Positions 32,444 through 59,799 are shown, counted from the first letter of the stretch. The stretch is DNA of 64,000 bases from Nautiliaceae bacterium (GCA_027011225.1 JALVAK010000008.1:18312-82311); one strand, 5' to 3'. Program-made: numbers and translations. The notes: generated by a model not told the origin, from the letters alone.

Positions 32444-34501
32444 TTGATTAGTCTAAAAAAAGAGTTTTTTAAAACTTCTTTGCTTGGTTTAACAATAGGA
32501 GCTGTTGTAATAGGAATATTGTATTTATTTATTACTAAAGTAGTAATTGAAAATGAGCTTAAAAAAGCTAGGCTTGAAGCAAAAACTATTATTGCTTATA
32601 GACATTATCTTGCATTAGTTTCTCCAAAAGTAAAAGTTGTTGATACTAATTTATCTCCTTTTGCAATAACTCCTGCTTTTACTACTAATCAAGTAGCTAA
32701 GATTTTAAGAGATGAGGGTGTTTATATAAAACAAACATCTGATAGATATAGAAATATTTTAGATAAACCAAACGAATCTGAGCTTGAGGCAATAAATTTT
32801 TTTAAAACTCATAAAGATAAAGAAGAATTTTTTCAAATTCATAATGCTGATAAAAATTTTAAAGAGAAGCATCTATTTTATGCAAGAAAACTTGTAATTG
32901 AAAAATCTTGTCTTAAATGTCATGGAATTCCGGGAAAAGATGTACCTTTAATTCTTTATAAAGAGCTTACAAAATATTATGGAAATAAAGCTTTTAATTA
33001 TCATCTAGGGGATGTTAGAGGAATTATTTCTATAGTATTTCCTTATGAAAAAATTTTAAAAAATATAGATAAAATTTTCTTGATTGTTATAGGGATTGGG
33101 GTTTTGTTTTTTTTAGTAGGTCTTTTTATATTTTATAAGTTAAATATGAATATTAATAAAGACATTTCAAAAGTTCTAAATCATTTCAAACTAACTCAAA
33201 AAGGCAAATATCCTATCTTTAAAGAAAAGCTTAAATTTTTAGAGTTTGCAAATTTAAAAGATGAAATTAATAAAACATTTTTAAGACTTAGGAGATATGA
33301 AGGTGAATTATATAAAGAGTTATATTTTAATAATTTAACTCTCCTTCCAAATAGAAATAAGTTTTTGGATTTAATAAAAGATAAAAAGTATGTAATTGCT
33401 CTTTTAAATATCGATAAATTTAAGGATATAAATTTTTATTTTGGAGTAGATATTGCTAATAAATTAATATTAGAAGTTTCAAAAAGATTAAAAAATTTAA
33501 AAAAGAAATATAATTTTAAATTATTTCATATAAATATTGATGAATTTGCTTTATTATTTAATAATATAGATGAAAATACTCTAAGAGAAGAGATAAAAGA
33601 AATTTTAAAAGAGCTAGAAAAACCATATAACATAGATGGAAATGAAATAATCATAAGATTTAGAGCTGGAATTAGTTTTAAGAAAAAAGATTATATAAGA
33701 GCTAATATAGCTCTTGATATGGCAAAAGAATTAAAAAAAGATATTTTATTTGGCAAAGAAATAGAAGGTTTAGGAAAATATAAAGAGCATCTGCAATGGC
33801 TTAGAAAATTAAAATGGGCACTTGAAAATGATAGAATTATTCCTTTTTATCAGCCAATAGTAGATGCTAATGGCAAAATGGTAAAATATGAAGCATTAGT
33901 TAGGCTTATTGATGAAAATGGTAGAGTTGTTAGTCCTTTTTTCTTTTTAGATGTAGCTAAAAAATCTAGAATGTATTTAGAAATAACAAAAAGAGTTATA
34001 GATAAAGCTATTGAAAAAATAAAAGAAAAAAATGTAGCAATTTCTATTAACTTAACTTTAGAAGATATTAATGATGAAGATATGAGGAAATTTATATTTG
34101 AAAAAATATCTTCTATTAAGGATAAAACTCTTTTAACTTTTGAGATAGTTGAGAGTGAAGATGTTGGAGAAAATAAAAAAGTTAAAGAATTTTTAAGAAA
34201 AATTAAAAGTTTAGGCTCTTTAATTTATATTGATGATTTTGGAAGCGGGTATTCTAATTTTGATTATTTGATTAAGTTAAATCCAGATGGGGTTAAAATA
34301 GATGGAAGTATTATAAAAAATATTTTAACTGATAAAAATAATGAGATAATAACAAAGACAATTATTTCTTTTGCAAAAGAGATGAATATAAAAACAATAG
34401 CAGAATATGTGGAAAATAAAGAGATTTTTGATAAGTTAAAAAATTTAGGAGTTGATTATTTCCAAGGATATTATTTCTCAGCTCCAAAAGAAGATATTTA
34501 A
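32444..34501 (+). CDS. Membrane c-di-GMP phosphodiesterase: periplasmic DUF3365 heme-c sensor + degenerate GGDEF + EAL
   Basis: TM1, a periplasmic domain with CxxCH (CLKCHG) and GDVRGIISIVFP (DUF3365), then TM2. GGDEF-fold with NIDEF in place of GGDEF. Intact EAL set (EALVRL, DDFGSGYSN, KIDGS, EYVE, QGYY). TTG start. Confidence 0.8.
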   Translation: MISLKKEFFKTSLLGLTIGAVVIGILYLFITKVVIENELKKARLEAKTIIAYRHYLALVSPKVKVVDTNLSPFAITPAFTTNQVAKILRDEGVYIKQTSDRYRNILDKPNESELEAINFFKTHKDKEEFFQIHNADKNFKEKHLFYARKLVIEKSCLKCHGIPGKDVPLILYKELTKYYGNKAFNYHLGDVRGIISIVFPYEKILKNIDKIFLIVIGIGVLFFLVGLFIFYKLNMNINKDISKVLNHFKLTQKGKYPIFKEKLKFLEFANLKDEINKTFLRLRRYEGELYKELYFNNLTLLPNRNKFLDLIKDKKYVIALLNIDKFKDINFYFGVDIANKLILEVSKRLKNLKKKYNFKLFHINIDEFALLFNNIDENTLREEIKEILKELEKPYNIDGNEIIIRFRAGISFKKKDYIRANIALDMAKELKKDILFGKEIEGLGKYKEHLQWLRKLKWALENDRIIPFYQPIVDANGKMVKYEALVRLIDENGRVVSPFFFLDVAKKSRMYLEITKRVIDKAIEKIKEKNVAISINLTLEDINDEDMRKFIFEKISSIKDKTLLTFEIVESEDVGENKKVKEFLRKIKSLGSLIYIDDFGSGYSNFDYLIKLNPDGVKIDGSIIKNILTDKNNEIITKTIISFAKEMNIKTIAEYVENKEIFDKLKNLGVDYFQGYYFSAPKEDI

Positions 34502-34510
34502 GGAGAAAAA

Positions 34511-35092
34511 ATGAAAATAGTTGTAGCTAGTGGCAACAAAGGTAAAATAAAAGAAATACAAAGTATTTTAAAAGATTATGAAATCATACCTTATACAGAA
34601 TTGATTGCTCCTATTGAAATAGAAGAAAATGGAAGCAGTTTTAAGGAAAATGCTATTATTAAAGCAAAAGCAGTATATGAAAAATTACCTCAATATTTGG
34701 TTATTGCAGATGATAGTGGTATTAGTGTTCCAGCTTTAAATAATGAGCCAGGTATTTTTTCTGCACGATATGCTGGTATTAACGCTAGTGATAAAGACAA
34801 TTTAAATAAACTTATTAATGAGCTAAAAAAAAGAAATATAAAAAAAACACCTGCTTTTTATACCGCTGCTATTGCTATAGCATCACCTTATGGTGTTTTT
34901 ACAACACATGGATTTATGAGGGGAGAAGTTATTGATGAGGCAAGAGGGGATAAAGGTTTTGGTTATGACCCTATGTTTATTCCAAAAGGATTTGATAAAA
35001 CATTAGGTGAGCTTGATGAAGAAGTAAAACAAAAAATATCTCATAGAGTAAAAGCTTTAGAGTTAGCAAAAAAGATTATAAAAGTTTTATAA
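34511..35092 (+). CDS. rdgB: Non-canonical purine NTP pyrophosphatase RdgB/HAM1
   Basis: [33 protein letters not shown] and GFGYDPMF motifs. Confidence 0.9.
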
Positions 35093-36901
35093 TCTTTTAT
35101 ATTTTATAAAAATTACTATAGTTGTTTTAGGTGGTATTTTGTTTATTTGAACATCATAAAATCTTTTAAGTTTGTTTTGACTTACGATTTTAACATTGTA
35201 TTTATCTATCTCAGGAGTAAAGTTTATTATTTTAATAGTTGGAGTATATATTCTAAAAGTTAAATTTTTCACTTCTTGATTATTGTTATTGCTTATATTA
35301 AGTGTTATTATATTAGAGCTAGCAGAGTAATCGTATGAAATGTTTTGAGCTAATAATGCTTTTGTAGCAATATCTTTTCCTTTCATAGGGTAGAAATATT
35401 TATTTTGTAAATATTTAAAATATTTCTCTAATACAGAAATATTTGTTTTATAAGCGAGTAAATGCGTGTGTACGCTTAGAGTATATACTCCATTTAATGC
35501 AGTTACAAAATTGTTTTCTAAAATTATGTTATGAAATATTTGAGATTTATTAAAATCTGTATCAATTAAATATGTATAATCATCTGTACCATGTCTTGGG
35601 ATAGTAATAATTCCATATTTCTTTGTAAAAGGTAATAAAAAAGGTTTTGGTTTTTCCATTACATAAATGTATCCAGCTTCTTTAAGCATTTTTTCTATTC
35701 TATCATCTATTTCTTCTCTTGGTGGTCTAAAGCCATATATTTTTCTTCCAGTGATTTTTTCAAGTAATTTTTTTGAATAAATTATCTCTTGTTTTAATAC
35801 CTCAATAGGAGCTCCTAAAATTTTACTATGAGAATAGCTATGAGAGCCAATTTCACAATTTTTAAATTGAGCAATTGCTTTTGTAATATTTTCATATTTT
35901 TTTGCAAGTTTTGCTACGGCAAAAAGAGTAACATCTATATTATATTCATTTGCTAATTTAGCAAAATTATATCCATAAGGATATTTATATTCTGTATCTT
36001 CTGATATAAAAACTGCATTTGGTTTATCTAAAAAAGGATAAGAAGATATTGAGATTAAATTATTTGAATATGAAGCAATATTACTAAAGATTTTTTTGAA
36101 TTCTTTATCATTCATATCTAAAAATACATAAGCAGGGAATGAAAAATAAAACCATTTACCTTTTCCATAAAATCCATGCCATGCAATCCCATCATCATAT
36201 ATTGATAAATTATGATTTTGAATTTGAGGCGATGATGTTACAGACCAGTTTGTTAAGACAATATCTGGAATAAAATTAGAATGAAAAATTGGCAAAGAAT
36301 CATAAATTACCAAATCTTCTCTTGTAGGATTATCTGACATATTAAGAGGAGATATTCTTTTATGAATATAAAAAATTGCTTTATTTTTAGGAATTGCTTC
36401 TATTTTTTTCTTTAAATTTGTAATCTCTTCTATAGTTTTTGCGTTTAAAAAATGTTGATTTTCATCAAAGTATCCAAATCTAAAATTAAATACGAATGTC
36501 CCACCTTTTGCTAGAAAATTTTTTATTTCATTTTTTGCGAATGTAGATATAGCATATGTATCAGGCGATATTAAAATATCGTTTTTATTTAAAAATATTA
36601 AATCTTTTTCTGAAATTATTTTGTAATTAAAGCCATTTTGTTTAAGTCTTAAAGCCAATTTTACTATGTCGTTTTTATATTTTTGAGGATTTAAATTTTT
36701 CAGTTTTAAAATATTTAATGTATTATTAGATAATAATATTTTAAATGTCGGTCTTTCATTATTTAAATAAACGCTAAAATTAATATTTGGCATTAATTGA
36801 TAAATAACAAAACCACTTAAAATAGCCAATAAAAAAATAAATATAAAGACTAAAAGTGTCTTTAATTTATTCAAAAAATACATATTTACCACCAACCTCA
36901 T
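35087..36901 (-). CDS. Membrane-anchored polysaccharide deacetylase (NodB/CE4 domain flanked by extra domains)
   Basis: N-terminal TM helix. Central NodB motifs ([21 protein letters not shown]). 604 aa. Last gene of the EPS operon. Confidence 0.78.
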
Positions 36902-37049
36902 CTAATACATCTTTATAAATTAATTTTTTTGCTAATTTTGTTTTATGTTTTTCTCTTGCTTTATATAGGAAATACGCAATAATTCCAAAAACTAATGTAA
37001 TTATTGTAATAATTAATATAATAAGTGCTAGAAATGCTAATAAGTTCAT
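36867..37049 (-). CDS. Small single-TM membrane protein (PgaD/IcaD-like position)
   Basis: 60 aa with one hydrophobic helix followed by a basic tail. ATGA overlap with the GT2 stop. Confidence 0.45.
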   Translation of the reverse strand: MNLLAFLALIILIITIITLVFGIIAYFLYKAREKHKTKLAKKLIYKDVLDEVGGKYVFFE

Positions 37050-38341
37050 AATCTACCTTTCCTTTCTAATTTTCCCCATTCCATTTTTATACCAAACCAC
37101 TCTTCTATAGTAGAGAATATTTTAACTAAATTTATGAATTGTATAAAGAACAATCTATAAAATATTGCATAAAATACTATAGATAAACTTTCATTTGTAA
37201 TAAGTACACAATAAAGAGCACCTGCAACATCTAATATTGTAAATAAACTCCACCAATAAAAAATTAAAAGAGAAATTCCTGTAGTAATAGCTAAATATAG
37301 TATAAATACATTGACCCAAAAATCCATAAAAGGCCAAAATACTGCTTCAAATAGCATATACCACATAGTAAAAGATGCTGCCATATTATCTTTAAAATTC
37401 CATAAAAGTTTTTTATGTTTTCTTATTGCTTGAAGTATACCTCTTGTCCATCTATATCTTTGTTTGATTAAGTCAAATATATTTTCAGGGGCTTCTGTTT
37501 TTGCAATAGCTTCTGATTCAAAATCTATTTTATATCCATGAGCAATAAGTTTTAATGTAACATCACAATCTTCTGCAAATGTATCATCATCATAAAGTCC
37601 TACGTCATAAAGTGCTTTTTTTCTAAACATACCAATAGGACCTGGAATAATATTTACAAGTTTTAAAAATGCTTGACCATTTCTTACCATATTTAGCCCT
37701 TCAATATATTCAAGGGCTTGAAGTTTCGTGATAATATTATTTTGATTACTTACAAATACAGAGCCTGCAACAGCAGCTATTTCTGGGTCTTCAAAATATA
37801 CTGCCATTAATTCTACAGCATCTTTTTGCAATTTTGAATCTGCATCAACTACCATTATAAGCTCACCGCTAGCTCTTTTGATTCCATAATTAATAGCTTT
37901 TGCTTTTCCTTCATTTGACTTTTTATATAGTTTTACAAAAGGAAGATAAGTATATTTTTGTACTACTAAAGATGTATTATCAGTACTTCCATCATCTACA
38001 ACTATAAGTTCTATATTTTTATAAGTTTGATTTATAATAGATTGTATCGATTTTTCAATTACTTTTTCTTCATTATAAGCTGGGATTATTACAGATACTT
38101 TTTTGTTTGTAGTTTTTTTAGTCTCTTCGGTAGCTTTAATTGTTGTTTTTAATATAGAAAAAAATAACAACACCATATATCTTAATATCACAAGAGTAAT
38201 AAAAATTAGAATAATTCCAATGCCTACTTTTATAACTATATTATTAATAATATAAAAAGTATTGTAATACTCAATAAGCACAAACGACAATAATAAAATA
38301 AGTAATATTGATAGAGAAATTATAAAAAATGTTTTTACCAT
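37046..38341 (-). CDS. Family 2 glycosyltransferase, processive polysaccharide synthase type (PgaC/IcaA/NodC-like)
   Basis: 2 N-terminal and about 4 C-terminal TM helices. IIPAYNEE, VVDDGSTD, VVDADS (DxD), AED and QRYRWTRG (QxxRW) motifs. Confidence 0.85.
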   Translation of the reverse strand: MVKTFFIISLSILLILLLSFVLIEYYNTFYIINNIVIKVGIGIILIFITLVILRYMVLLFFSILKTTIKATEETKKTTNKKVSVIIPAYNEEKVIEKSIQSIINQTYKNIELIVVDDGSTDNTSLVVQKYTYLPFVKLYKKSNEGKAKAINYGIKRASGELIMVVDADSKLQKDAVELMAVYFEDPEIAAVAGSVFVSNQNNIITKLQALEYIEGLNMVRNGQAFLKLVNIIPGPIGMFRKKALYDVGLYDDDTFAEDCDVTLKLIAHGYKIDFESEAIAKTEAPENIFDLIKQRYRWTRGILQAIRKHKKLLWNFKDNMAASFTMWYMLFEAVFWPFMDFWVNVFILYLAITTGISLLIFYWWSLFTILDVAGALYCVLITNESLSIVFYAIFYRLFFIQFINLVKIFSTIEEWFGIKMEWGKLERKGRL

Positions 38342-41300
38342 AGTTTCTCCATATCTAAGCTACATTCGTAGCTTCTATAATTACTTGCAGTTTTAATAGG
38401 AGAAGTATTGCTATATTCGCATTTAGCATTAAATTCAAAATTTTTAATATTTTTATTTGCATTTATGCCTAGTTTATATAAAAAAGATTTATCCCATATG
38501 CTATAACCTATAGCGCCTTTTAGCATTAAGCTTATTAATTTATTATCCGGATAAAATTTTATTCCTATTAAATTAGCATCTGTTTTATCAGGAGAGTAAT
38601 AACATTTTGTTTGTTTTGTATTGAATTGATACCATCCAGAAAAATATATAGCGTATGGATTATTATAAAAGTAATTGCTATAAAAATCATAATCAATTTG
38701 AGGAGTTATTGCTATATTGCTATCATCTATATACTCTCCTGCAATTGAATACCATAATCCTTTAATTTTGTCTAATTGTATAAATCTGCTAGCTTCTAAT
38801 TTAGCCCTTTTATGATTTAAAGAGCATATAGTTTTTCTTGAATACACTAAATTTTCATAATTTATATTTATAGTATGATTTAAATATTTAGTTTTAAAAT
38901 CTACATAAGGATTGATTGTTTTTCCTGCATTATCTCTTCCTAAAATTATTTGAAATTTAGGAGTTTGATAAACTGCACCTATTATATTGCCTTTATCTTT
39001 TTTATTGTTATCATTTAATTTGTATATTCGAGAAAAAACGCCTATATAATTATCGTTAATATTTTTTAAAAGGCTTCCTTCGATATGGTTATAGTGTATT
39101 TTTTGATTGTCGTGAAAATGATAAAGAGATAAATTAAATTTATAAGAAGGGTTTTTGTTTATTGAGTTTATTGTTGTATTGTTTTGCTCTATGTAAGTTT
39201 TTTTTAGTTGGATTAAATCCAAGTTTTTTTGTATTTTAGTTAAGTTACTTTCTCTTTTTATATTTTTTTCTGCAAGTATTATTTTGTTATTTTTTTGATT
39301 AATGGCATCTTTTAAAGGAATAAAATCTTCTTTTTTATTTATTTGGCTTAAATTTTGTTTTATTAAAAATATTAGTGATTTTTCTGGGTTGTTTGGATTA
39401 TATTCTCCCGGATACCATTTTTCTTTTATGATTTTGCATTTTTCATTATCACATTTTATCCATAAAATTTTATAACCTTTATCTTTTTTAACAGTAGATG
39501 CATATACTTGATAAAACTTAACTTTGTATATATTTCCTTTTTTTTCTAATAAAATTGGGTCATAAATACCTACACTAATAAATCCTGCTTTTTTGAAGAT
39601 ATTTTGTTTTTTTAATCTCCAATATAAATTATCTCTTATTTTTTTATCATAAAATGATGCATATTTATCAAAATCCATACTCTCCCATGCTTTTTTCCAT
39701 TCGTTTAAGAAGTGTTTTATTTTTTCAGGAAGTGGTTTTGGAACTTCTTTTAATAGTTTTTCATAAATTTTTTTTGCTTCTTTTATTTTTCCTGATTTTT
39801 GAAGACAGTATGCATAATGATATTCTAAAATAGGGTCTTTTTTCTCCCATAATAAATTATAAAATTCACCGGCTGCTTGTTTGTATTTTCCATCAAATTC
39901 TAATGCATATGCATATTTTTCTCTTACTTTGCTATCTGTTGGTTTAATGAATAAATATTCTTTATAATATTCAATCGCTGTTGGATAAAATCCTGCAAAA
40001 TAGCTTCTATCTCCGTACACTAAGAGTTTTTGAGCTTTATTATTAAAATATTTTTCTATAACTGATTGATTTTCTGAATAGATAAATCTTGGATTTACTT
40101 TTAGTATTTTTGCTTTTAATTCAATGGCAGGTTTAAATTTTGGATATTTATTTAAGATTTTATTTAAAATATCTAATGCTTCTTTGTTAAATCCATTCCA
40201 ATAATATCTTTTTGCAAGCTCTAAATAAGCCTCAGGCGTGTTTTTTATAGCAGCATAATATTCCCAATATGAAAATCCTTTATAAAATTCTTTTAATTGA
40301 AGATAAATATCTCCTAAAGTTTTGTATAGCTCTATTTTATCAGGGTTATTTTTCAAATAAATTTCATAATATTTTGCTGCTTTAGCGTAATTTTTATCTG
40401 CATAATATAAGTCTGCTAGTTTTAACACATACTCCATATTGTTAGGATTATCTTTTACTAAAGAGAGATATTTTCTAATTAATGGTTTGATATTACCATT
40501 TAATATCATTAAAGCTTCTTTTACTTCATTATCATTAGGGTTTATTTTGTGAAGTTTTTTAAATATTTTTTTTGCTTCTTTTTTATGCCCTTGCCACATA
40601 TGAATAAAACCTATCATTTTTAAGGCTTCATATTTTTGTTTTTCATTTCCATTTTCATAAACATCACTTAAGAATATTAAAGCTTTTTTATAAAGCCCAT
40701 TCCATGCAAGGATTTTTCCATATAAGAGTTTAGCTTGATAATTATTAGAATTGATATACTTATCAAGTATTTGACTTGCTTTAGCTGTCTCTCCATTCCA
40801 TGTATAAAGTTTTGCTAAAAATATATTAGCTTGCATATCATCTGGGTGGGAATTAACATAATCTTGAGCAATTTTTATTGCTTCTTGAGGATTTAAGTCA
40901 TATAAAGCGATAACTAGCTTTTTGAGATTATCAAAATTAGGATTATTTTGGTAATTTTCTTTTAATAAATTTATATATTTGTAAATTTGTTTGTTAATTA
41001 GTTTTAGATAATGGTTATATTCTTTTTTTGATAATTTATATTTTAGCGAATAAAGTATTTTTTTAGCACTTAATGCATCACCTAATTGTATATAAGTTTG
41101 AATAAGTTTTATTCCATATTCTTTATTTCCTGTAGCATTGTATAATATCTTAAATAGTCTATTGGCTTTTATTATATTGCCTTTGTAGAAATAATCATAT
41201 GCTTTTATCTCTAAAACATCTAAATCTTTTGAGTTTAAGTTGCTTAATAATTTTAATGATAAGTCATATTTTCCTTCCCACATAGCTACTCTTGCTACTT

Positions 41301-41703
41301 TTATCAAAGTAGAAGGTTTTAAAATAGGATGATATTTTGTATAAAAGTCAATTATTTCTTTATATTTTTGCTCTTTGTATAATTTATTTATATAATTATC
41401 AATATCTCCATATTGCTCTTCTAATTGTTTATTTATCAAAAATTTATTTAATCTCTCTTTTAAAAGAAGCGCTTTTTTGTTTTTTGGCTCAATTTTTAAA
41501 ACTTCATTAATTAATTGTTGAGCTTTTGAGTAGTTTTTATTATCTAAATAATACTTTGCTAATACTAATCGATTTTTTATATCTAGTTTATTTTGTTGTA
41601 TTTTTTGTGTTAGCTCTTTTACATCTAAATCGATTGAAGAAGCAAATGATATAGCTATTAATGTAGGAAATAGTATAATTTTTTTTAGCATTTTCCATCC
41701 CAT
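38335..41703 (-). CDS. Outer-membrane exopolysaccharide export protein: TPR array + NTF2-like insert + C-terminal beta-barrel (PgaA/BcsC/PelB architecture)
   Basis: Signal peptide and about 650 aa of TPR-like repeats. WKKAWESMDFDKYASFYD...KVKFYQVYAS module. Last about 300 aa have alternating hydrophobic strands ending in an aromatic residue (...MEKLW). Confidence 0.62.
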   Translation of the reverse strand: MGWKMLKKIILFPTLIAISFASSIDLDVKELTQKIQQNKLDIKNRLVLAKYYLDNKNYSKAQQLINEVLKIEPKNKKALLLKERLNKFLINKQLEEQYGDIDNYINKLYKEQKYKEIIDFYTKYHPILKPSTLIKVARVAMWEGKYDLSLKLLSNLNSKDLDVLEIKAYDYFYKGNIIKANRLFKILYNATGNKEYGIKLIQTYIQLGDALSAKKILYSLKYKLSKKEYNHYLKLINKQIYKYINLLKENYQNNPNFDNLKKLVIALYDLNPQEAIKIAQDYVNSHPDDMQANIFLAKLYTWNGETAKASQILDKYINSNNYQAKLLYGKILAWNGLYKKALIFLSDVYENGNEKQKYEALKMIGFIHMWQGHKKEAKKIFKKLHKINPNDNEVKEALMILNGNIKPLIRKYLSLVKDNPNNMEYVLKLADLYYADKNYAKAAKYYEIYLKNNPDKIELYKTLGDIYLQLKEFYKGFSYWEYYAAIKNTPEAYLELAKRYYWNGFNKEALDILNKILNKYPKFKPAIELKAKILKVNPRFIYSENQSVIEKYFNNKAQKLLVYGDRSYFAGFYPTAIEYYKEYLFIKPTDSKVREKYAYALEFDGKYKQAAGEFYNLLWEKKDPILEYHYAYCLQKSGKIKEAKKIYEKLLKEVPKPLPEKIKHFLNEWKKAWESMDFDKYASFYDKKIRDNLYWRLKKQNIFKKAGFISVGIYDPILLEKKGNIYKVKFYQVYASTVKKDKGYKILWIKCDNEKCKIIKEKWYPGEYNPNNPEKSLIFLIKQNLSQINKKEDFIPLKDAINQKNNKIILAEKNIKRESNLTKIQKNLDLIQLKKTYIEQNNTTINSINKNPSYKFNLSLYHFHDNQKIHYNHIEGSLLKNINDNYIGVFSRIYKLNDNNKKDKGNIIGAVYQTPKFQIILGRDNAGKTINPYVDFKTKYLNHTININYENLVYSRKTICSLNHKRAKLEASRFIQLDKIKGLWYSIAGEYIDDSNIAITPQIDYDFYSNYFYNNPYAIYFSGWYQFNTKQTKCYYSPDKTDANLIGIKFYPDNKLISLMLKGAIGYSIWDKSFLYKLGINANKNIKNFEFNAKCEYSNTSPIKTASNYRSYECSLDMEKLW

Positions 41704-43034
41704 TCGATTACTTCTGTTAGTTTATACTCTGAGAGCTGTAATTTTTTTTCTAATCTTTTTTTAAACATCTCTTTTGTTACATCTATTAAGCATAATGATA
41801 ACATATTTGATTTTTCATCAATATATATAATATCATGATTTCTTAAACGTTTTATTATCTCTTTGTTGAATTTGTTAGTTTTGACGATTGAGAAATATAT
41901 TCTTTCATTAAATAGTATTGAGATAGATTTGCAAAAGTTTTCATAACTTGGAGCAAATTTTTGAGGAGGCAGAAGTTTTATTTTTGTTGAATAAAAGAAA
42001 TTGTTTGTTAATTTTTCTATAGTTAAAATATACTCTTCTAAATTAAAGTTTTTATCAAATACTTCATAGCATCTTGATTGGGTTGCATCTATTTTATCTT
42101 CTGCTCTTATATAATCTTTATTTGCAATAAATATAACTTCACTATTAGGTGAAGTTTGTTTTACAAGAGAGCATATGTTAAAGTGAGGATTAGTATCAAT
42201 ATCTTTATATATTACAACATCTGGATTATGCTCTAATTTGTTTATTAATTCATTTAAGTTAGAAGCAAATTCAATTTCAAAATATTCTCCAAAAATATAT
42301 TTATTTAAAAGTTTAAATCTTTTATCTTCTGTTATAACTAATATTTTTCTTTTTATTTTATTATTATTGCGATTTGTATCGTTGCAATTATTTATACTCT
42401 CTTGTGAATTTTGAGTTGCTGGAATTAGCATAAGTTGTTTATTGTAGATAAAAAAGTAAGAAGTATGTGTTACAGGATATAAAGAGTGTTTTACATTAAT
42501 TTTACGTTTGTTATTGTCTTTTTGCATTAAAAGAGATATGTCTGTATAGTTTTCTAAAAAGCTGGTAATAAAATGTTTTACATTAGATGTAATAAATACT
42601 TGTTTACCGTGTTTTGTTACAGCAATTTCAATAAATTTTTCTAGAAAAATTCTTGCTAAGTCATATTCACCTTCTACAAACATTAATCCTGGTCTATGAA
42701 GTATTACAGCATCACAATTTGTCTCTTGTATGATTCTGTCTATATCTTCATAAATAAAATCAAATCCATAAGCAGATTTGATATCTATCCAGTCTTCTTT
42801 TAAACAAAGTAACTCTGAATTGTCTATTAATCTATTTATATTTGGGTCGTTTAAATTTTTGATTGCACTTAATCTTTTAATCATTAATTTTTTAGGAATA
42901 GATGAGATTATAGTTATTTTTTCGATTTTTTCGTTTTGTGCGTATGCGTATAGTGCAAATGTAAGCTTTCCTAATTTACTATCTCCTTCAATTAAGGAAA
43001 CATCTGCTTTTTTTATTATATCAATGAGTTCCAT
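41685..43034 (-). CDS. Three-domain regulator: degenerate P-loop (RecA/KaiC-like) + REC-like + degenerate GGDEF-like with RxxD
   Basis: GDSKLGKL (Walker-A-like with no S/T). ILVITED...DVVIYKDID...VIFIANKD...FDKNF (receiver-like). LLPPQKF...RNHDIIYIDEKSNMLSLCL (GGDEF fold, motif lost). Good RBS AAGGGGA. 14-nt overlap with the HK gene. Confidence 0.5.
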   Translation of the reverse strand: MELIDIIKKADVSLIEGDSKLGKLTFALYAYAQNEKIEKITIISSIPKKLMIKRLSAIKNLNDPNINRLIDNSELLCLKEDWIDIKSAYGFDFIYEDIDRIIQETNCDAVILHRPGLMFVEGEYDLARIFLEKFIEIAVTKHGKQVFITSNVKHFITSFLENYTDISLLMQKDNNKRKINVKHSLYPVTHTSYFFIYNKQLMLIPATQNSQESINNCNDTNRNNNKIKRKILVITEDKRFKLLNKYIFGEYFEIEFASNLNELINKLEHNPDVVIYKDIDTNPHFNICSLVKQTSPNSEVIFIANKDYIRAEDKIDATQSRCYEVFDKNFNLEEYILTIEKLTNNFFYSTKIKLLPPQKFAPSYENFCKSISILFNERIYFSIVKTNKFNKEIIKRLRNHDIIYIDEKSNMLSLCLIDVTKEMFKKRLEKKLQLSEYKLTEVIEWDGKC

Positions 43035-44826
43035 TTATAATCCCCTTTTTTAATTCTGTAGGTAGTGATAATAATCTTAAAGCTTCTTTATTATTAGGGT
43101 CTTTTTCTAATATTTGGTATAAATATTTATTTGCTAATTTATAATTTTTTAGTTTATAATAAGCTTTTGCAAGAAGTAATTTTTCTTGAGTGTTTTTTGG
43201 CGGTTTTAATATATTAATTACTTCTTTATATTTGTGATTTGCAAAAAATATTTTAGCTTTTAATAAATTATCACTACCTCCTATCCTTTCTCCTTTTTTT
43301 AAGTAATATAGCGCTTTTTTGTAATTTTTTAATTCGGTGAGTATTTTACCATATAAATAGTAAGGTTTGGAAGATGTATCGTTTATTGTATTTATACTTT
43401 TGTTTATATAAAATAAAGCTTGTTTTATTTTATGTTGTTTATAATATGATAGAGCTTTATAATAGTTATTTAGTGATATGAATTTTTTAATTGTAGGCAA
43501 TGAATAAAGCTCATTATGTCTAGCTTTTATATTTATATACCATTCTCCATCAGGAAGAGAAGGTGAAATTTGATTTTTAGATATTAAATATGAATATATA
43601 GGAGGGTTTGAGAAATTTTTATCTTTTGAAATTAAAATTTTAAATTCTTTATATGGGCTTTTCCATGAAATAGTTAATTTAGGCTCTGTTTGTATTTTTA
43701 TATCTGATACTTTTTTAGGAAGAGGCAATTTTTGTATAGTTTTTGCAACAATTAAACCTTCATTTTTAGCAACCACTATATTTTTGCTTTTAATCTCCCC
43801 ATTAAATACACTAACTGCAGTTTTGTTTTTTGCTATAGTTTCAAATTGTGTTCCTAAGTTTGTAAAAGTAGTATTAGGAGTTATAATTTTTATTTTATTA
43901 CCATTTGTAGCAACTTCTATATCAGATTTTTTTGCAATAATTTCATTTCTTGTACGAGTATTAAAGATATTTTTATATGCAATTATTTTCAATTCATCAT
44001 TTCTATTTGCTCTTGCTATTATTCCGCTTTCAAATTTAATAATTTTTAGATTATCAGTAACTTCTATTTTTATTTTTTGAGGAATTAGACAATAAAAATA
44101 ATCTATTACAAAAAATGCAATAATTAATACAGCAGCAAATGCGCTTGCTAATATTTTTAATTTTATTTTTTTACTAACTTTTGGAAGATATATATAAAAT
44201 ATTGTCCCTACATTCTCTTCTGATTCAAAATATATTTTGCCTCCAAAACTCTCTATTACAATTTTTGCAAAATTAAGCCCAATTCCTGTTCCGTAAATAT
44301 TGTCTTTTGTATAGTATTTGCTAAAAATTTTCTCTTTTTCTTTTATTCCAATTCCAGTATCTCTTATGATTAAAAGATAGCCTCTTTTTAATATTTCAAC
44401 TTTAATAATTAAAGAGCCATTTTCTTTGTTGTATTTTATAGCGTTGTGAATTACATTTAATAAAGCTTTTTTTAGCCATTCTCTATTTGTTTTTATTTTT
44501 AATTTTTTATCTGGAAGTTGCAAATCTACTTTAATGTTTTTTATTGTTATTTCATTATCAAGCTCTTGTATTATTTCATAAATTAGTTCATCTAAAAAAA
44601 AAGAGGAGTGTTTTAAAAATCTTGTGTTTTGATATTGCTCTAAGTTAAAATATTCATTTATTAAATCTAAACTATCTTCTATATTTCTTTGAATTTTAGG
44701 GAGTAATTCGTTTAGTTTAAATGGTTTTTGTTTTAGAATAGTTAAACTTAGCTTAACTCCTAATAACTTATTTTTTAAATCATGAAGAAAAATTTTAGCT
44801 AAATTTGTTACATTTTTTTTGAAAAT
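43021..44826 (-). CDS. Histidine kinase with inverted topology: N-terminal DHp+CA core, one TM helix, C-terminal FecR-like + TPR domain
   Basis: The in-frame ORF is open from 44838. H-box IFLHDLKNKLLGV has its His codon at 44782-44784. N-box LLNVIHNAIKYN, G1 RDTGIGI, G2 GTGIGLNFA. TM ILASAFAAVLIIAFFVIDYFYCLI. FecR-like IITPNTTFTNLGTQFETI...VSVFNGEI. TPRs at the C-terminus. The 5' end is uncertain, with no ATG/GTG/TTG upstream of TTG 44523; ATT 44826 is taken provisionally. Confidence 0.65.
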   Translation of the reverse strand: MFKKNVTNLAKIFLHDLKNKLLGVKLSLTILKQKPFKLNELLPKIQRNIEDSLDLINEYFNLEQYQNTRFLKHSSFFLDELIYEIIQELDNEITIKNIKVDLQLPDKKLKIKTNREWLKKALLNVIHNAIKYNKENGSLIIKVEILKRGYLLIIRDTGIGIKEKEKIFSKYYTKDNIYGTGIGLNFAKIVIESFGGKIYFESEENVGTIFYIYLPKVSKKIKLKILASAFAAVLIIAFFVIDYFYCLIPQKIKIEVTDNLKIIKFESGIIARANRNDELKIIAYKNIFNTRTRNEIIAKKSDIEVATNGNKIKIITPNTTFTNLGTQFETIAKNKTAVSVFNGEIKSKNIVVAKNEGLIVAKTIQKLPLPKKVSDIKIQTEPKLTISWKSPYKEFKILISKDKNFSNPPIYSYLISKNQISPSLPDGEWYINIKARHNELYSLPTIKKFISLNNYYKALSYYKQHKIKQALFYINKSINTINDTSSKPYYLYGKILTELKNYKKALYYLKKGERIGGSDNLLKAKIFFANHKYKEVINILKPPKNTQEKLLLAKAYYKLKNYKLANKYLYQILEKDPNNKEALRLLSLPTELKKGIINGTH

Positions 44827-44880
44827 CGCCTCCCCTTTTTATAAAAATCTAGACGAATATTTTAATCTATAAAAATGACA

Positions 44881-45510
44881 TTAAGATGACGTAAGTTTAT
44901 ATCCTAAATATCTTTTTGATTCAATTAAATCTTTTCCTATTTTTTTTCTAAGTCTCTTTACAAGAGCTGCAAGTGTATTTGGTAAGATTGGCTCATTCCA
45001 GACTTTATTTTCTATCTCTTTAAAAGATACATATGAGTCTTTTTTTTCAATTAGTAATTCCAAAAATTTAGCTTCTTTTGCGCTTAATTCAATCGTTTTT
45101 CCATCTACAATTAAAGATTTTTGTGCAGGAGAGTAATAAATATTATCGCTTAATTTTATATTTCTTTTTTTGGTAAATCTGTTGATTCTAATTAATAATT
45201 CTTCAAATTCAAATGGTTTTTTTAAAAAATCTACAGCTCCAAGCTCAAACGATTTTTTTATATTTTCAATATGTCCCATTCCAGAAATTACTATTAGTAA
45301 TGAGTTTTCTATTAATTTTGGACGTTTGCTAATTTCGTTTAATAAGTTCCCATCTGGTAGATTTATATCTCCAATTATTACATCAAAATGAGTATCATTT
45401 GTTAAAAATTCTTTAATAGATTTGAAGCTTTTTACTTCATATTCGGTTGATAATAGCTCAGTTAATGTATCTCTTATTAAGTTTTCATCTTCAATGATAG
45501 CAATTTTCAA
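44881..45510 (-). CDS. OmpR-family response regulator (REC + winged helix)
   Basis: MKIAIIEDE, VIIGDINLPDG (phospho-Asp) and KKPFEFEEL. C-terminal trans_reg_C-like LSAKEAKFLELL...YLGYKL. Confidence 0.9.
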   Translation of the reverse strand: MKIAIIEDENLIRDTLTELLSTEYEVKSFKSIKEFLTNDTHFDVIIGDINLPDGNLLNEISKRPKLIENSLLIVISGMGHIENIKKSFELGAVDFLKKPFEFEELLIRINRFTKKRNIKLSDNIYYSPAQKSLIVDGKTIELSAKEAKFLELLIEKKDSYVSFKEIENKVWNEPILPNTLAALVKRLRKKIGKDLIESKRYLGYKLTSS

Positions 45511-45531: not shown

Positions 45532-46191
45532 TTATAATAAAATTTTACTAGAGATGGCACATGCTGCGCTTTCACTTCTTAGTATAAAACCTTTTAATTT
45601 TACTTTATTTTTAAAAAATTTTCTTTCTCTTTTGCTAAATCCTCCTTCTGCTCCTATTAAAAATGGCATATTATACTCTTTTTGGCATTGTATCTCTTCC
45701 CCATCAAAATCAACTGCTATAAAATCCTTATATTTTTCAAAAAATTCTTCTGAAGAGTTTATTATTTCTATTTGCATTAAATCGCTTCTGCCACATTGTT
45801 GGTTTGAATTGATTAAAATTTTTTTTATTCTATCAAGTTTTAGCTTGAAATTTTTTTGAGAAAAATCGCAATAAATAAAACTTATCTTACTAACTCCTAT
45901 CTCATTTAGAGTAGGTAGAGTTTTTTCTATGTTTTTTGGCTCAATTATACACCATCCAAGATGAAAAAATTTTTCAGGTTTATTTGGTTTTAGCTCTTTT
46001 TTATCTAAAGTTAAAATAGCTTCTTTTTTGTTAATAGATTGAATTTTGTAATAATACAAATAATCATCTTTTAAGTTTCTAATTTTTACTATTTCATCTT
46101 TTTTAACTCTTCTTACTTTAAAAAGATATTTATGCTCTTCTCCTGTTAAAGTAATAGTAGTATTTGTATCAGGATAATATAAAAACTGCAT
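45532..46191 (-). CDS. rsmE: 16S rRNA (uracil1498-N3)-methyltransferase RsmE
   Basis: EEHKYLFKVRRVK N-terminal PUA-like part and the C-terminal GAEGGFSKRE SPOUT motif. Confidence 0.85.
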   Translation of the reverse strand: MQFLYYPDTNTTITLTGEEHKYLFKVRRVKKDEIVKIRNLKDDYLYYYKIQSINKKEAILTLDKKELKPNKPEKFFHLGWCIIEPKNIEKTLPTLNEIGVSKISFIYCDFSQKNFKLKLDRIKKILINSNQQCGRSDLMQIEIINSSEEFFEKYKDFIAVDFDGEEIQCQKEYNMPFLIGAEGGFSKRERKFFKNKVKLKGFILRSESAACAISSKILL

Positions 46192-57549: not shown

Positions 57550-59799
57550 TTGCTTCTTCTTTTTTTACCTCTTTTATTATTTTCTCTTGAGATTAATGTA
57601 GATTATTATGAAAATAACAATATTAAAAACGAAATTGCAACTTTATATAATGATTTTAATTTTACTTGTAAACAAACAAAAAAAGATTTAGTAACTTGTG
57701 AATTTGACAAACTTCCTTCTACTTATGTGTTTAAAGCTAAGAGTGTGTTTTTTAGATTTAATCCTTATTACAAAAATAATAAATTTTTTTTAGATATTAA
57801 ATGCAAAGATAGATGTGTTGTAATTTCAAGAGAAGATAATTTATATAAAAATCCTCTAATTACATTAAATAATTTAGAAAAATCAAAAAAATGGATAATT
57901 ATTGCTAAACAAGAGCCATTTTTAAGTAAAAATTCTAAAAGAGGTCTTAAATTCTATTTTAAACATCCAGTAGATATTTATATAGGTGCTATTGATGATG
58001 AGGGAAATCCTATTAAGGTTTCTAATGAATCAAGAGATGTTATTAAATATTTTGAAATATTAAAAGCATTTAAAAAAGAAAAAGATGTCAATATAGATGA
58101 TTTTATTAAAAATTATCCTAATTCTGTTTTTATTCCAGATGTATTGTATTTAAAAATGGTATTGCTTGATAGAAAAAAAGATTTTGAAAGCTTAGTAGAG
58201 ATTGGGAAAAAATGGATTAAAAAATATGCATATGATGATAAGTTGCCAAAAGTTTTATTATTAATGGGTAAAGCTTATTTTAAAATGGGCTTTTTAAGTG
58301 ATGCAAGTTATTTTTTTAATAGAGTTATTACTGAATATAAAGGAAGCAATGAAGCTTATTTAGCAAAAATTTATTTAGCAGATTTATTATACTCTACTGG
58401 TGATGTTAAAAAAGCTATGAAACTTTATGAGGATGTGTTATTTTCTACTAATAATATTGATATTGCTTCTTTAGCTGCATCTCGCCTTGCAAAAAAGTAT
58501 ATTGAAAAAGGAGAGTTTAAAAAAGCTTATGAATATTATTTGAAAATATATAAAGCTAATAAAAAATTTTTGCTTAAAAACAAGAAAAAAGCTTATGAGC
58601 TTGCTAAACTTTTAGCATCTCATAAAATGTATTCTCTAGCAATAGATATTGCACAAGAATTATTAAAAAAACTAAAATATACAGATGATTTGTATGAGCC
58701 ACTTTTGTATTATCTTGCACTTTGGAATTATAAAGCTAAAAATTATAAAGCAGCTTTAAAATATATAGATTTTTATCTTAAAAAATTTCCATTTGGAGAT
58801 TATAGCGATAATTTAAAATCTTTAAGAGATAAAGTCTTATTTAATTTACCAAGTAAAGATTTAAAAGAGCAGTTAAGGTATATCGATAAAATTATAAAAG
58901 AGTATAAAGGAAGTGAAATTGCTCTAAAAGCTCTTGTAAAGAAAGCAAAAATTTTAAGAAAATTAAAAAAATATGATGAAATATTAAAAATGGAAAATAA
59001 GTTAAAAAGTTTAAGTGAAAATATTTTCCCAGATAAGAATAAATTTTTACAAGAAGTTAAAAAAGAGTATTTAATTATGCTTTTAGAGAAAAATGAGTGT
59101 TTCAAAGCGGTTAAATTAATAGAAGAATATCATATCTCAATAGATAAAAAATATGATGATAAAATTTATGAATGTGCTATGAGAGCAATGGATTATAAAT
59201 TAGCATCAATTGTATGTAATAAATATTTAACTTCTCCTGATGATAGAGTGTTTATAAAATGGATGAAGCGCAAAATTGAAGCACTTTGGAAAATGGGAGA
59301 TTATAAAAATTTAGTAATTGCTATAGATGATTTATGCAGTGTTTATAAAAATTGCCATAAATACAAATTGTATAAATTTTTTGCATTATGGAATTTAGGA
59401 GAATATAAAAAAGCTTTAGAAGTTGCTAAATCTTTTAAAATTAAAGATATCAAAAATGCAGATGCTTATATTAAGATAGTAAAATGGGCTTTAGGTAATA
59501 AAAATTATCTTTTAGCAGCTACATTTGCTAAAAAAATTATTGATTTGCAAAATGAGTTTAGAGTTTATCCATATTCTCCTTTTGTAGAGTTTATTTATGC
59601 AAAATATTCTAAAAATAAAAAAGAAGCTATAAAAATCTTAAAAGAGCTTTTAAATAGGGTTAGAGGAGAAGATAAAGCAAGAGCTTTATTTATGCTTGCA
59701 AATTTAACACATAATAAAAAATATATTGATGAATGCTTAAAAGTTAAAGATTCTAAACTTTGGAGAGGTTTATGTAAAGATGCTTTAGATTTGTTTTAA
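57550..59799 (+). CDS. Large secreted TPR-repeat protein, function unknown
   Basis: TTG start behind AAAGAGG and a hydrophobic signal-like N-terminus. Numerous TPR-like A/Y/K helices. 10 nt downstream of nuoN on the same strand. Confidence 0.55.
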   Translation: MLLLFLPLLLFSLEINVDYYENNNIKNEIATLYNDFNFTCKQTKKDLVTCEFDKLPSTYVFKAKSVFFRFNPYYKNNKFFLDIKCKDRCVVISREDNLYKNPLITLNNLEKSKKWIIIAKQEPFLSKNSKRGLKFYFKHPVDIYIGAIDDEGNPIKVSNESRDVIKYFEILKAFKKEKDVNIDDFIKNYPNSVFIPDVLYLKMVLLDRKKDFESLVEIGKKWIKKYAYDDKLPKVLLLMGKAYFKMGFLSDASYFFNRVITEYKGSNEAYLAKIYLADLLYSTGDVKKAMKLYEDVLFSTNNIDIASLAASRLAKKYIEKGEFKKAYEYYLKIYKANKKFLLKNKKKAYELAKLLASHKMYSLAIDIAQELLKKLKYTDDLYEPLLYYLALWNYKAKNYKAALKYIDFYLKKFPFGDYSDNLKSLRDKVLFNLPSKDLKEQLRYIDKIIKEYKGSEIALKALVKKAKILRKLKKYDEILKMENKLKSLSENIFPDKNKFLQEVKKEYLIMLLEKNECFKAVKLIEEYHISIDKKYDDKIYECAMRAMDYKLASIVCNKYLTSPDDRVFIKWMKRKIEALWKMGDYKNLVIAIDDLCSVYKNCHKYKLYKFFALWNLGEYKKALEVAKSFKIKDIKNADAYIKIVKWALGNKNYLLAATFAKKIIDLQNEFRVYPYSPFVEFIYAKYSKNKKEAIKILKELLNRVRGEDKARALFMLANLTHNKKYIDECLKVKDSKLWRGLCKDALDLF

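Follow-up and report, generated by a model that had tools for sequence, protein, structure and literature searches.

A gene cluster of a Nautiliaceae bacterium predicted to encode a c-di-GMP-responsive, synthase-dependent exopolysaccharide secretion system with a BcsE-like protein

Gene content of the locus

The locus described here lies in a stretch of 64,000 nt from a Nautiliaceae bacterium (GCA_027011225.1, JALVAK010000008.1:18312-82311), hereafter the window. It consists of seven co-directional genes packed on the minus strand between positions 35087 and 45510 (Table 1), as identified from the listing of open reading frames (ORFs), with the start of the histidine kinase gene placed further upstream. 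From first to last they encode a response regulator, a histidine kinase, a 449-aa protein similar in fold to BcsE, a 1122-aa export protein with tetratricopeptide repeats (TPRs), a family 2 glycosyltransferase (GT2), a 60-aa membrane peptide and a polysaccharide deacetylase. The first two genes are separated by 54 nt and the following junctions overlap by 14, 19, 7, 4 and 35 nt. This gap, these overlaps and the gene coordinates had been given in a preliminary description of the same stretch and were recovered here. Mechanical ORF calls agree with them for six of the seven genes, the kinase being the sole mismatch, so that its start alone carries a caveat (see below).

An eighth gene, rsmE, which the preliminary description did not include, lies 21 nt upstream of the response regulator gene in the same direction and brings the co-directional run to eight when it is counted. 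This 16S rRNA methyltransferase gene adjoins the cassette in two phyla, being co-directional in Nautiliaceae and divergent in Desulfurobacterium sp. TC5-1, which is either a coincidence or the trace of a block transfer. Scans for promoter and terminator consensus sequences returned counts at or below the shuffle expectation and give no information on operon boundaries. Public gene calls start the 1122-aa protein at Met5 (position 41691), which is likely its true start, and that of the deacetylase is possibly Met7.

Table 1. Features of the window and of related loci. Positions refer to the window unless a lineage is named. Lineages: L003, Lebetimonas natsushimae; L004 and L005, Nautiliaceae metagenome-assembled genomes (MAGs); L008, Caminibacter mediatlanticus TB-2; L009, a more distant metagenomic lineage; L016, Desulfurobacterium sp. 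TC5-1; L018 and L019, two further lineages.
Feature	Position	Strand	Support or remark
OmpR/PhoB-type response regulator, 209 aa	44881-45510	-	Pfam Response_reg 1.2e-14, Trans_reg_C 8.7e-14
Histidine kinase, 601 aa, predicted inverted topology	43021-44826	-	HATPase_c 5.4e-19 (residues 115-216), TPR (453-587)
ATT start and Shine-Dalgarno sequence of the longer kinase reading	44824-44838	-	Sequence in text
BcsE-like cytosolic protein, candidate c-di-GMP receptor, 449 aa	41685-43034	-	AlphaFold2 and Foldseek
RxxD motif R310-A-E-D313, REC* domain	42096-42107	-	Proposed equivalent of BcsE I-site II (R306ATD)
RxxD motif R398-N-H-D401, GGDEF* domain	41832-41843	-	Proposed equivalent of BcsE I-site I (R415TGD)
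Outer-membrane export protein (predicted), 1122 aa	38335-41703	-	TPR Pfam matches, Cds6_C 7.3e-11, AlphaFold2 barrel
NTF2-like domain of the export protein, residues ~654-765	39409-39744	-	Pfam Cds6_C 7.3e-11
16-strand β-barrel of the export protein, residues ~854-1122	38338-39144	-	AlphaFold2; C-terminal Trp
Processive GT2 synthase (predicted), PgaC/IcaA-like, 431 aa	37046-38341	-	Glycos_transf_2 3e-38
QRYRW motif of the synthase	37448-37462	-	
Single-pass inner-membrane peptide (predicted), 60 aa	36867-37049	-	TM residues 3-29; beside the GT2 gene in nine lineages
Periplasmic polysaccharide deacetylase (predicted), 604 aa	35087-36901	-	Polysacc_deac_1 1.7e-16
c-di-GMP phosphodiesterase neighbour (probable)	32444-34501	+	Pfam EAL 3.3e-62, Tll0287-like 2.3e-27, GGDEF 1.3e-13
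rsmE	45532-46191	-	
rsmE in L016	8808-9527		Divergent from the cassette
Protein of ~325 aa in L008	16626-17603		
Protein of ~325 aa in L003	17920-18921		
Protein of ~325 aa in L009	13184-14152		
Protein of ~325 aa in L018	8220-9200		
Counterpart of 416 aa in L016	17885-19135	opposite	
288-aa distant relative of the BcsE-like protein, L006	4741-5607		REC*-GGDEF* half only
288-aa distant relative of the BcsE-like protein, L007	9-443		REC*-GGDEF* half only
bcs genes beside the cassette, L011	1-1898		Separate operon
bcs genes beside the cassette, L018	9856-12166		Separate operon
fliK	14608-15828	+	GC 0.208
DUF7494/TPR protein	57550-59799	+	GC 0.228

Synthase, membrane peptide and deacetylase

The GT2 protein exhibits the motifs DDGSTD, DADS, AED and QRYRW and, according to a transmembrane (TM) scan, two N-terminal and about three C-terminal TM helices. 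It carries no PilZ domain. The best NCBIfam score is obtained with PgaC_IcaA (196.7 bits), followed by NodC (126.6) and CelA (70.5). Alignment with E. coli PgaC shows 32% identity over 309 aa (E 6e-48), the D, DxD, ED and QxxRW residues being aligned, against 23% identity with BcsA. The PDB matches to hyaluronan synthases (HAS) and cellulose synthases (BcsA) extend through the C-terminal TM region. These features indicate a processive, membrane-embedded synthase with its own TM channel rather than a transferase of the lipopolysaccharide (LPS) type, and a homologue rather than an equivalog of PgaC. The preliminary description had likewise called it a processive synthase. It had also reported no Wzx/Wzy or ABC exporter, in agreement with the Pfam profiles of the seven genes, which include no such domains; a processive inner-membrane glycosyltransferase free of these exporters is the arrangement of synthase-dependent systems.

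The 60-aa peptide is encoded directly after the synthase in all nine lineages examined. In addition to its single TM helix it has a basic juxtamembrane YKxREK motif and an acidic/aromatic tail (YEDVLDE..YVFFE). Peptide and synthase are the best conserved proteins of the cassette, the former being 43-83% identical between lineages in which the BcsE-like protein reaches only about 25%. No significant Pfam family was found for the peptide (the lone listed match, DUF4064, scores 17.8 bits for a cut-off of 32.1), and its alignment with BcsF is TM helix on TM helix only and uninformative. Its presumed role is that of a partner which the synthase cannot do without, of a membrane anchor for the BcsE-like protein, or both.

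The deacetylase comprises a signal anchor (residues 15-33), a GATase1-like/GH42M-like region (~55-290), a carbohydrate esterase family 4 (CE4) domain (~295-500) and a C-terminal domain of ~100 aa. The N-terminal region matches GH42M and ABC_transp_aux models and is read as a GATase1-like fold; its Glyco_hydro_42M match (8e-5) stays under the gathering cut-off (22.7 versus 25.8 bits) and is listed unmarked (E <= 1e-5) in the Desulfurobacterium orthologue. The CE4 motifs ISEDTEY, GSHSYSH, FRPPREE, DDY and SVHTHL are invariant in six orthologues, and CE4 structures are matched in the PDB. The enzyme is predicted to be anchored in the inner membrane and to face the periplasm with its CE4 motifs intact. 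It shows no similarity to PgaB, a CE4 deacetylase that carries a GH153 β-1,6-glucosaminidase domain at its C-terminus, and no GH153 domain accompanies its own CE4 domain.

The predicted outer-membrane export protein

The 1122-aa protein begins with a signal peptide followed by about 600 aa of TPRs (Pfam matches at residues ~27-656). Between the TPR array and the C-terminal region lies an NTF2-like domain, which shares 28% identity with the domain at the C-terminus of Bdellovibrio Bd1075 (7o21; root-mean-square deviation, rmsd, 2.2 Å). Most orthologues keep this insert; PgaA, BcsC and PelB have nothing equivalent. A K/N-rich linker of low model confidence, presumably disordered, separates it from the remainder of the protein.

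Searches of residues 780-1122 against Pfam and NCBIfam, and against the PDB with phmmer, found nothing, including no BCSC_C match, and this region was resolved by fold search only. The AlphaFold2 model of residues 654-1122, built with 23 orthologues, has a mean pLDDT of 83.8, mostly above 90 in the barrel, and shows 16 β-strands. The top five Foldseek matches of the barrel are BcsC (9b8a, 9b8h and 6tzk), PgaA (4y25) and PelB (9h80_M), ahead of general porins; superposition on PgaA 4y25 gives a TM-score normalised by target length (TMt) of 0.72 and an rmsd of 4.1 Å. A C-terminal β-barrel had been proposed in the preliminary description, and the model predicts it with confidence. The combination of a TPR scaffold with an outer-membrane β-barrel is that of synthase-dependent systems, and the model suggests an outer-membrane exit of the BcsC/PgaA/PelB type.

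A BcsE-like protein as candidate c-di-GMP receptor

The 449-aa protein has no Pfam match. Its AlphaFold2 model (pLDDT 87.3, predicted TM-score, pTM, 0.83) is composed of three α/β domains: a degenerate RecA/KaiC-like N-terminal domain (residues 1-205), a pseudo-receiver (REC*, 229-345) and a truncated, degenerate GGDEF domain (GGDEF*, 355-449). The best three PDB matches of this model in Foldseek are E. coli BcsE chains (9fo7_E, 9fnn_E and 9fp0_E; E 2e-14 to 1e-13). These chains come from the Bcs macrocomplex and the BcsE2F2 subcomplex and align full length over about 490 columns, while KaiC hexamer subunits rank after them, on the N-terminal domain. A sequence-profile search of the PDB retrieves only receiver matches at residues ~223-352 (NtrC1, 6e-6), and the position of the phospho-acceptor Asp is occupied by Tyr or Phe in the family. 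The model has the tripartite architecture that experiments assigned to BcsE, namely a degenerate RecA/KaiC-like N-terminal domain, REC* and GGDEF* (PMC7439463, PMC7840130). The protein had earlier been called P-loop-like/REC-like/degenerate-GGDEF; this reading was right and is sharpened here, by model, fold search and motifs, to a BcsE-like architecture.

BcsE binds dimeric cyclic di-GMP (c-di-GMP) via R415TGD in GGDEF* and R306ATD in REC* (PMC7439463, PMC7840130), I-site I being documented in PMC7439463 and I-site II in PMC7840130. The 449-aa protein carries an RxxD motif in each of the two corresponding domains (Table 1). In an alignment of 52 diverse homologues with members down to ~20% identity, no columns other than R398 and D401 are invariant, and their motif stands five residues ahead of the degenerate 'GGDEF' hairpin, the canonical position of an I-site. 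R310-A-E-D313 is invariant in 19 close homologues, and its R310 and D313 are at least 90% conserved in the 52 homologues, among nine such columns. In an hhalign comparison with E. coli BcsE, which is not significant (E=0.12), the two are collinear over 326 columns (residues 91-432 against 89-447), and R310xxD313 is paired with R306ATD and R398xxD401 with R415TGD. The REC* pairing recurs in a second run (E=0.39). A BcsE-like fold thus occurs together with two invariant or near-invariant RxxD motifs, the best conserved positions of the family, aligned with experimentally proven I-sites. From fold and motifs we conclude that the protein is a predicted c-di-GMP sensor that would work like BcsE.

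The family is rare. A word-indexed search found 19 proteins; when 1.84 billion cluster representatives were searched exhaustively with a hidden Markov model (HMM), 79 clusters reached E <= 1e-10. This second search returned no match of BcsE length (523 aa), and its matches beyond E=1e-10 cover the REC* region only. Membership of the 449-aa protein in the BcsE sequence family was considered and rejected, the test for homology at the Pfam/HMM level having failed.

A scan of a genome collection with a profile of the BcsE-like protein retrieved just two Nautiliaceae MAGs and two paralogues limited to REC*-GGDEF*. These 288-aa distant relatives (26-32% identity) belong to a Campylobacterales MAG and a Sulfurospirillum MAG, where they adjoin glyS with no polysaccharide genes nearby. 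They may represent a stand-alone family of c-di-GMP-binding paralogues.

Conservation and distribution

The order BcsE-like protein, TPR-porin, GT2, peptide and CE4 deacetylase is kept in all nine lineages with enough contig. Since the BcsE-like gene is invariably the first of this core, its product appears to be a component of the system and not a bystander. Caminibacter mediatlanticus TB-2 and the two Nautiliaceae MAGs carry the cassette in the same order and at the same site, between nuo-AAA-rsmE on one side and rdgB, a gene for a Tll0287-GGDEF*-EAL protein and acrB on the other. The cassette of Lebetimonas natsushimae is identical in make-up and occupies a different chromosomal context. 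In the more distant metagenomic lineage L009 a response regulator gene is found at the 3' end. Desulfurobacterium sp. TC5-1 (Aquificota; reached via WP_022846233.1) and lineages L018 and L019 have the five-gene core only, with no two-component system.

In L011, L012 and L018 a genuine bcs operon (BCSC_C 5e-48 and a BcsQ-like ATPase) ends beside the cassette. This adjacency hints at a historical or functional tie between the cassette family and Bcs systems.

A secreted protein of ~325 aa accompanies the cassette in five lineages, its gene following that of the deacetylase. It exhibits the motifs NPE[FY]N[EQ]N and FQEMRA and belongs to no Pfam family; its lone weak match is a designed TIM barrel. 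A TIM-barrel hydrolase is suspected, and the protein may be the glycoside hydrolase of the system. It is also missing from the two closest relatives of the window. In these and in the window the deacetylase gene abuts the convergent rdgB with a 6-nt overlap.

The preliminary description supposed that no such locus had been reported in Campylobacterota, and our literature search, which included the Nautilia profundicola genome paper and a systematic survey of synthase-dependent operons, found no description of it. The main text of that survey mentions neither Epsilonproteobacteria nor any Campylobacterota genus.

Overall reading and comparison with known systems

From protein sequences and structural models we consider it likely that the locus specifies all parts of an exopolysaccharide secretion machine that is synthase-dependent, responds to c-di-GMP and belongs to a family not described before. 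The polymer is probably a biofilm glue similar to poly-β-1,6-N-acetylglucosamine (PNAG). The last four genes had been described before as the parts list of a synthase-dependent system, which the synthase, the barrel and the CE4 domain support. The accompanying notion of a 'PgaA-C-D-B logic' stands for the synthase, at the sequence level, and fails for the peptide, which with its one TM helix is not PgaD-like, and for the deacetylase, which lacks GH153.

Several findings weigh against the proposed machine. None of 19 family members of the 449-aa protein matches BcsE in Pfam even at E <= 10, and the similarity of the family to BcsE is not significant by sequence alone (hhalign E=0.12-0.39); for this reason the link to BcsE rests on fold, collinearity and motif correspondence. 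Global superposition of the model on BcsE gives low TM-scores (0.30). Such values are to be expected of a flexible protein with three domains, yet they are no proof. The synthase scores 196.7 bits against the PgaC/IcaA equivalog model TIGR03937, far from its cut-off of 422.3. The peptide has no BLAST similarity to PgaD and resembles neither PgaD nor BcsF in sequence. A tblastn search found no ~325-aa protein in the window, where it would be expected between 35087 and 35092. The window contains no GGDEF domain with an intact active site and encodes no diguanylate cyclase. Finally, the operon structure is deduced from gene spacing alone.

The locus resembles PgaABCD/IcaADBC in its 2+3-TM GT2 with the same motifs, in the small membrane partner encoded after the synthase, in the periplasmic CE4 enzyme and in a TPR protein whose 16-strand porin superposes on the PgaA barrel. 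However, the peptide of the locus has 60 aa and one TM helix, whereas PgaD is a protein of 137 aa with two such helices, as is usual for PgaD/IcaD-type subunits. The deacetylase differs from its Pga counterpart by its inner-membrane anchor, its GATase1-like N-terminal domain and the lack of GH153, and the porin by its ~600 aa of TPRs and inserted NTF2-like domain. In Pga systems c-di-GMP binds PgaC-PgaD directly, whereas the locus would use a dedicated BcsE-like cytosolic protein. It also has an embedded two-component system and the order E-like, A, C, d, B.

These comparisons bear on the simplest alternative, that of a divergent pgaABCD (PNAG) operon in the order A-C-D-B, with the peptide as a minimal PgaD and the 449-aa protein as an unrelated regulator. 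The closeness of the GT2 to PgaC/IcaA, the TMt with PgaA, which is the best superposition of the barrel when normalised by target length, the presence of a CE4 deacetylase and the position of the small TM protein after the synthase gene, as for pgaD and icaD, all agree with it. However, the synthase fails the equivalog cut-off by a wide margin, no similarity to PgaA, PgaB or PgaD is detectable, the peptide has one TM helix instead of two, the deacetylase has a different architecture, and the BcsE-like gene always opens the core cassette across nine lineages. We regard this alternative as unlikely.

The similarities to cellulose systems are found mainly in fold and layout. The 449-aa protein shares with BcsE its three-domain architecture, with a REC* incapable of phosphotransfer, and has RxxD motifs that align with both BcsE I-sites, the peptide has the approximate length (~60 aa) and single-pass topology of BcsF, and the barrel best matches BcsC. 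In contrast to BcsE, the 449-aa protein is shorter (449 against 523 aa), with a shorter GGDEF*, no C-terminal tail and no significant sequence similarity. Unlike E. coli-type cellulose systems, the locus has a PgaC-like synthase without PilZ and lacks BcsB, BcsG, BcsQ and BcsR. The established partners of BcsE (BcsA-PilZ, BcsQ/BcsR and BcsF) are not found with it, BcsQ-like genes occurring only near distant members of the family. The hosts differ too: type II Bcs systems belong to Beta- and Gammaproteobacteria, the cassette to thermophilic Campylobacterota and Aquificota.

A cellulose-type or chitin/chitosan β-1,4 system, with a synthase that makes a glucan or GlcNAc chain, BcsE/BcsF-like control, a BcsC-like porin and a CE4 enzyme that makes chitosan or removes O-acetyl groups, would fit the BcsE-like fold and motifs, the three BcsC structures heading the barrel matches, the BcsF-like size and topology of the peptide, NodC as the second-best NCBIfam model, the Chitin_synth_2 matches of orthologous GT2s (unmarked in Desulfurobacterium, weak or faint in others) and the distant cassettes beside bcsC/bcsQ, but it appears slightly less probable still than a plain PNAG operon, given a PilZ-less GT2 closer to PgaC than to BcsA, a CelA score of just 70.5 bits, the absence of BcsB, a barrel with no BCSC_C match and the bcs genes near the cassette in L011 and L018, which make up an operon of their own.

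The locus also resembles Pel and the Listeria PssE system. As there, c-di-GMP would be sensed through an RxxD I-site in a GGDEF domain devoid of catalytic activity, which would then license polymer synthesis; a single long exporter is made of TPRs and a β-barrel (PelB is among the top five matches), and a periplasmic deacetylase would be required for a cationic polymer. It differs from Pel in that PelF is a cytosolic family 4 glycosyltransferase (GT4) whereas the synthase here is a membrane GT2, in that PelD is a membrane GAF-GGDEF protein whereas the candidate receptor is RecA*-REC*-GGDEF*, and in that PelA, a multi-domain hydrolase/deacetylase, belongs to another family. In the secretion machine proposed here, only the synthase is recognisably Pga-like at the sequence level, while receptor and porin are Bcs-like at the fold level. 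Nothing comparable to the deacetylase architecture, the NTF2-like insert or the inverted kinase described below is present in the Pga, Bcs, Pel and alginate (Alg) systems.

Signalling genes and the probable phosphodiesterase nearby

The first two genes of the locus form a signalling pair. The response regulator, the first of them, consists of a receiver and a winged-helix DNA-binding domain. Although the preliminary description called it atypical, its translation shows all the receiver residues in place (acidic pocket E7-D8, D48, S76 and K98) and the protein looks canonical. Its orthologues are encoded upstream of the kinase in Lebetimonas, C. mediatlanticus and the two Nautiliaceae MAGs, and downstream of the cassette in L009. 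The pair is a clade-specific addition to the five-gene core.

The kinase as mechanically called spans 43021-44523 (TTG start, 500 aa), in a frame that is open upstream as far as 44838. A longer reading starts at 44826 with an ATT codon that follows a strong Shine-Dalgarno sequence (AAGGGGAGG) at a distance of 4 nt, and only this reading includes the H-box FLHDLKNK (His15). In L004 (~8197) and L005 (~8194) a Shine-Dalgarno sequence is similarly followed by ATT-TTY-AAA, with no ATG, GTG or TTG ahead of the H-box; the orthologues of Lebetimonas, C. mediatlanticus and L009 have 590-633 aa and a TTG start. The kinase is thus very probably a protein of 601 aa starting at this ATT codon. Public gene calls shorten it to 500 aa, with loss of the phospho-accepting His.

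NCBIfam alignments of the kinase begin at residues 3-15, and the N, G1 and G2 boxes are present. The domains retrieved are REC and Trans_reg_C in the regulator and HATPase_c and C-terminal TPRs in the kinase. The TM scan finds one TM helix, at residues 223-241, followed by ~360 residues with the TPRs at their end. Because this lone helix comes after the dimerization/histidine phosphotransfer and catalytic (DHp/CA) core, the topology is predicted to be inverted, with an N-terminal cytoplasmic core and a presumed sensor that is C-terminal and periplasmic.

At the opposite end of the locus, the plus-strand neighbour encodes a Tll0287-like sensor with a CLKCH (CXXCH) haem-c motif, a degenerate GGDEF domain (NIDEF) and an intact EAL domain (EALVR, DDFGSG). 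It is probably a redox- or gas-responsive c-di-GMP phosphodiesterase. This EAL enzyme had been associated with the locus from the outset. It is indeed present, and the gene is syntenic in C. mediatlanticus and the two Nautiliaceae MAGs, but it is absent beside the cassette in Lebetimonas, L009, Desulfurobacterium, L018 and L019, so that the association holds only in the Caminibacter-like clade. It lies outside the conserved core and is possibly a clade-specific off-switch.

Base composition and inheritance

The locus had been judged more AT-rich than its flanks, and its mean gene GC of 0.244, compared with 0.291 in the remaining 49 genes of the window (p=0.005), confirms this. The difference is marked at the first codon position (GC1, 0.337 against 0.421, p=0.001) and small at the third (GC3, 0.139 against 0.159, p=0.08). 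The deficit falls on codon positions 1 and 2 and thus reflects amino-acid composition. An equally high AT content is found in fourteen of those 49 genes, fliK and a TPR gene among them, and C. mediatlanticus shows the same pattern at the locus. The genes of lowest GC in the window are fliK and that of the DUF7494/TPR protein, both of chromosomal core type.

No tRNA gene was found in the whole window, no repeats bracket the locus, and an Rfam scan of the window for riboswitches gave no family above threshold. A horizontally acquired island, as initially suggested, was examined by windowed GC, GC per codon position, synteny and scans for tRNA genes and repeats, and was rejected: GC3 matches the flanks and the site is conserved in three relatives. 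Since the GC deficit lies at GC1 and not GC3, the flanks are conserved, and neither tRNA genes nor bracketing repeats occur, we argue for vertical inheritance, at least within the Caminibacter-like clade, and for fast-evolving K/N/I/Y-rich proteins that follow the AT bias of the genome. Over a longer timescale the cassette probably moves between lineages and phyla.

Proposed mechanism

Transcription would be set by the OmpR-type regulator and the kinase, sensing via its periplasmic part (a β-rich domain and the TPRs), and the kinase may read the status of the envelope or of secretion. The synthase with the 60-aa peptide would polymerise a UDP-N-acetylhexosamine, most likely UDP-GlcNAc, into a PNAG- or chitin-like chain and thread the growing chain across the inner membrane. 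In the periplasm the deacetylase would partly de-N-acetylate the polymer, as do PgaB, IcaB and PelA. The TPR array would scaffold this step and pass the chain to the porin, and the TPR/NTF2/barrel protein would export it.

Between the I-sites of its REC* and GGDEF* domains the BcsE-like protein would bind c-di-GMP, probably in the form of an intercalated dimer. BcsE is recruited to the membrane by BcsF, a single-pass peptide (PMC7439463, PMC7840130). The BcsE-like protein may similarly dock at the membrane, possibly on the cytosolic tail of the 60-aa peptide, and there activate, stabilise or assemble the synthase, replacing the absent PilZ or PgaD receptor. In the Caminibacter-like clade the adjacent haem-sensor EAL enzyme would lower c-di-GMP and switch the machine off.

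Implications

Synthase-dependent machines, such as those for cellulose, PNAG, Pel and alginate, are central models for the biofilm matrix and for the switching of enzymes by c-di-GMP. To our knowledge, BcsE has so far been regarded as an accessory peculiar to E. coli-type cellulose systems. Two further proposals, which we advance jointly and hold to be evenly balanced between true and false, reach beyond the locus. The first is that the cassette, with or without the TIM-barrel-like hydrolase, is a distinct and unrecognised synthase-dependent type, shared, probably horizontally, by vent thermophiles across phyla (Nautiliaceae and Desulfurobacterium). The second is that the BcsE/BcsF-style 'booster' with its dual I-site is an ancient portable regulator that here drives a non-cellulose, PilZ-less synthase, rather than an enterobacterial speciality of cellulose secretion.

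Further new points of design would be the inverted kinase, whose TPR sensor is predicted to lie in the periplasm, its conserved start at ATT and the NTF2-like domain inserted in the porin. A BcsE-like protein tied to a PgaC-like synthase in deep-branching vent thermophiles would widen the reach of the BcsE regulatory design, and the cassette may serve as a natural experiment in the activation of a synthase that has no PilZ domain. We know of essentially no characterisation of the biofilm biology of Nautiliaceae and Desulfurobacterium on chimneys and animal hosts; the cassette provides a candidate matrix-polysaccharide locus for both.

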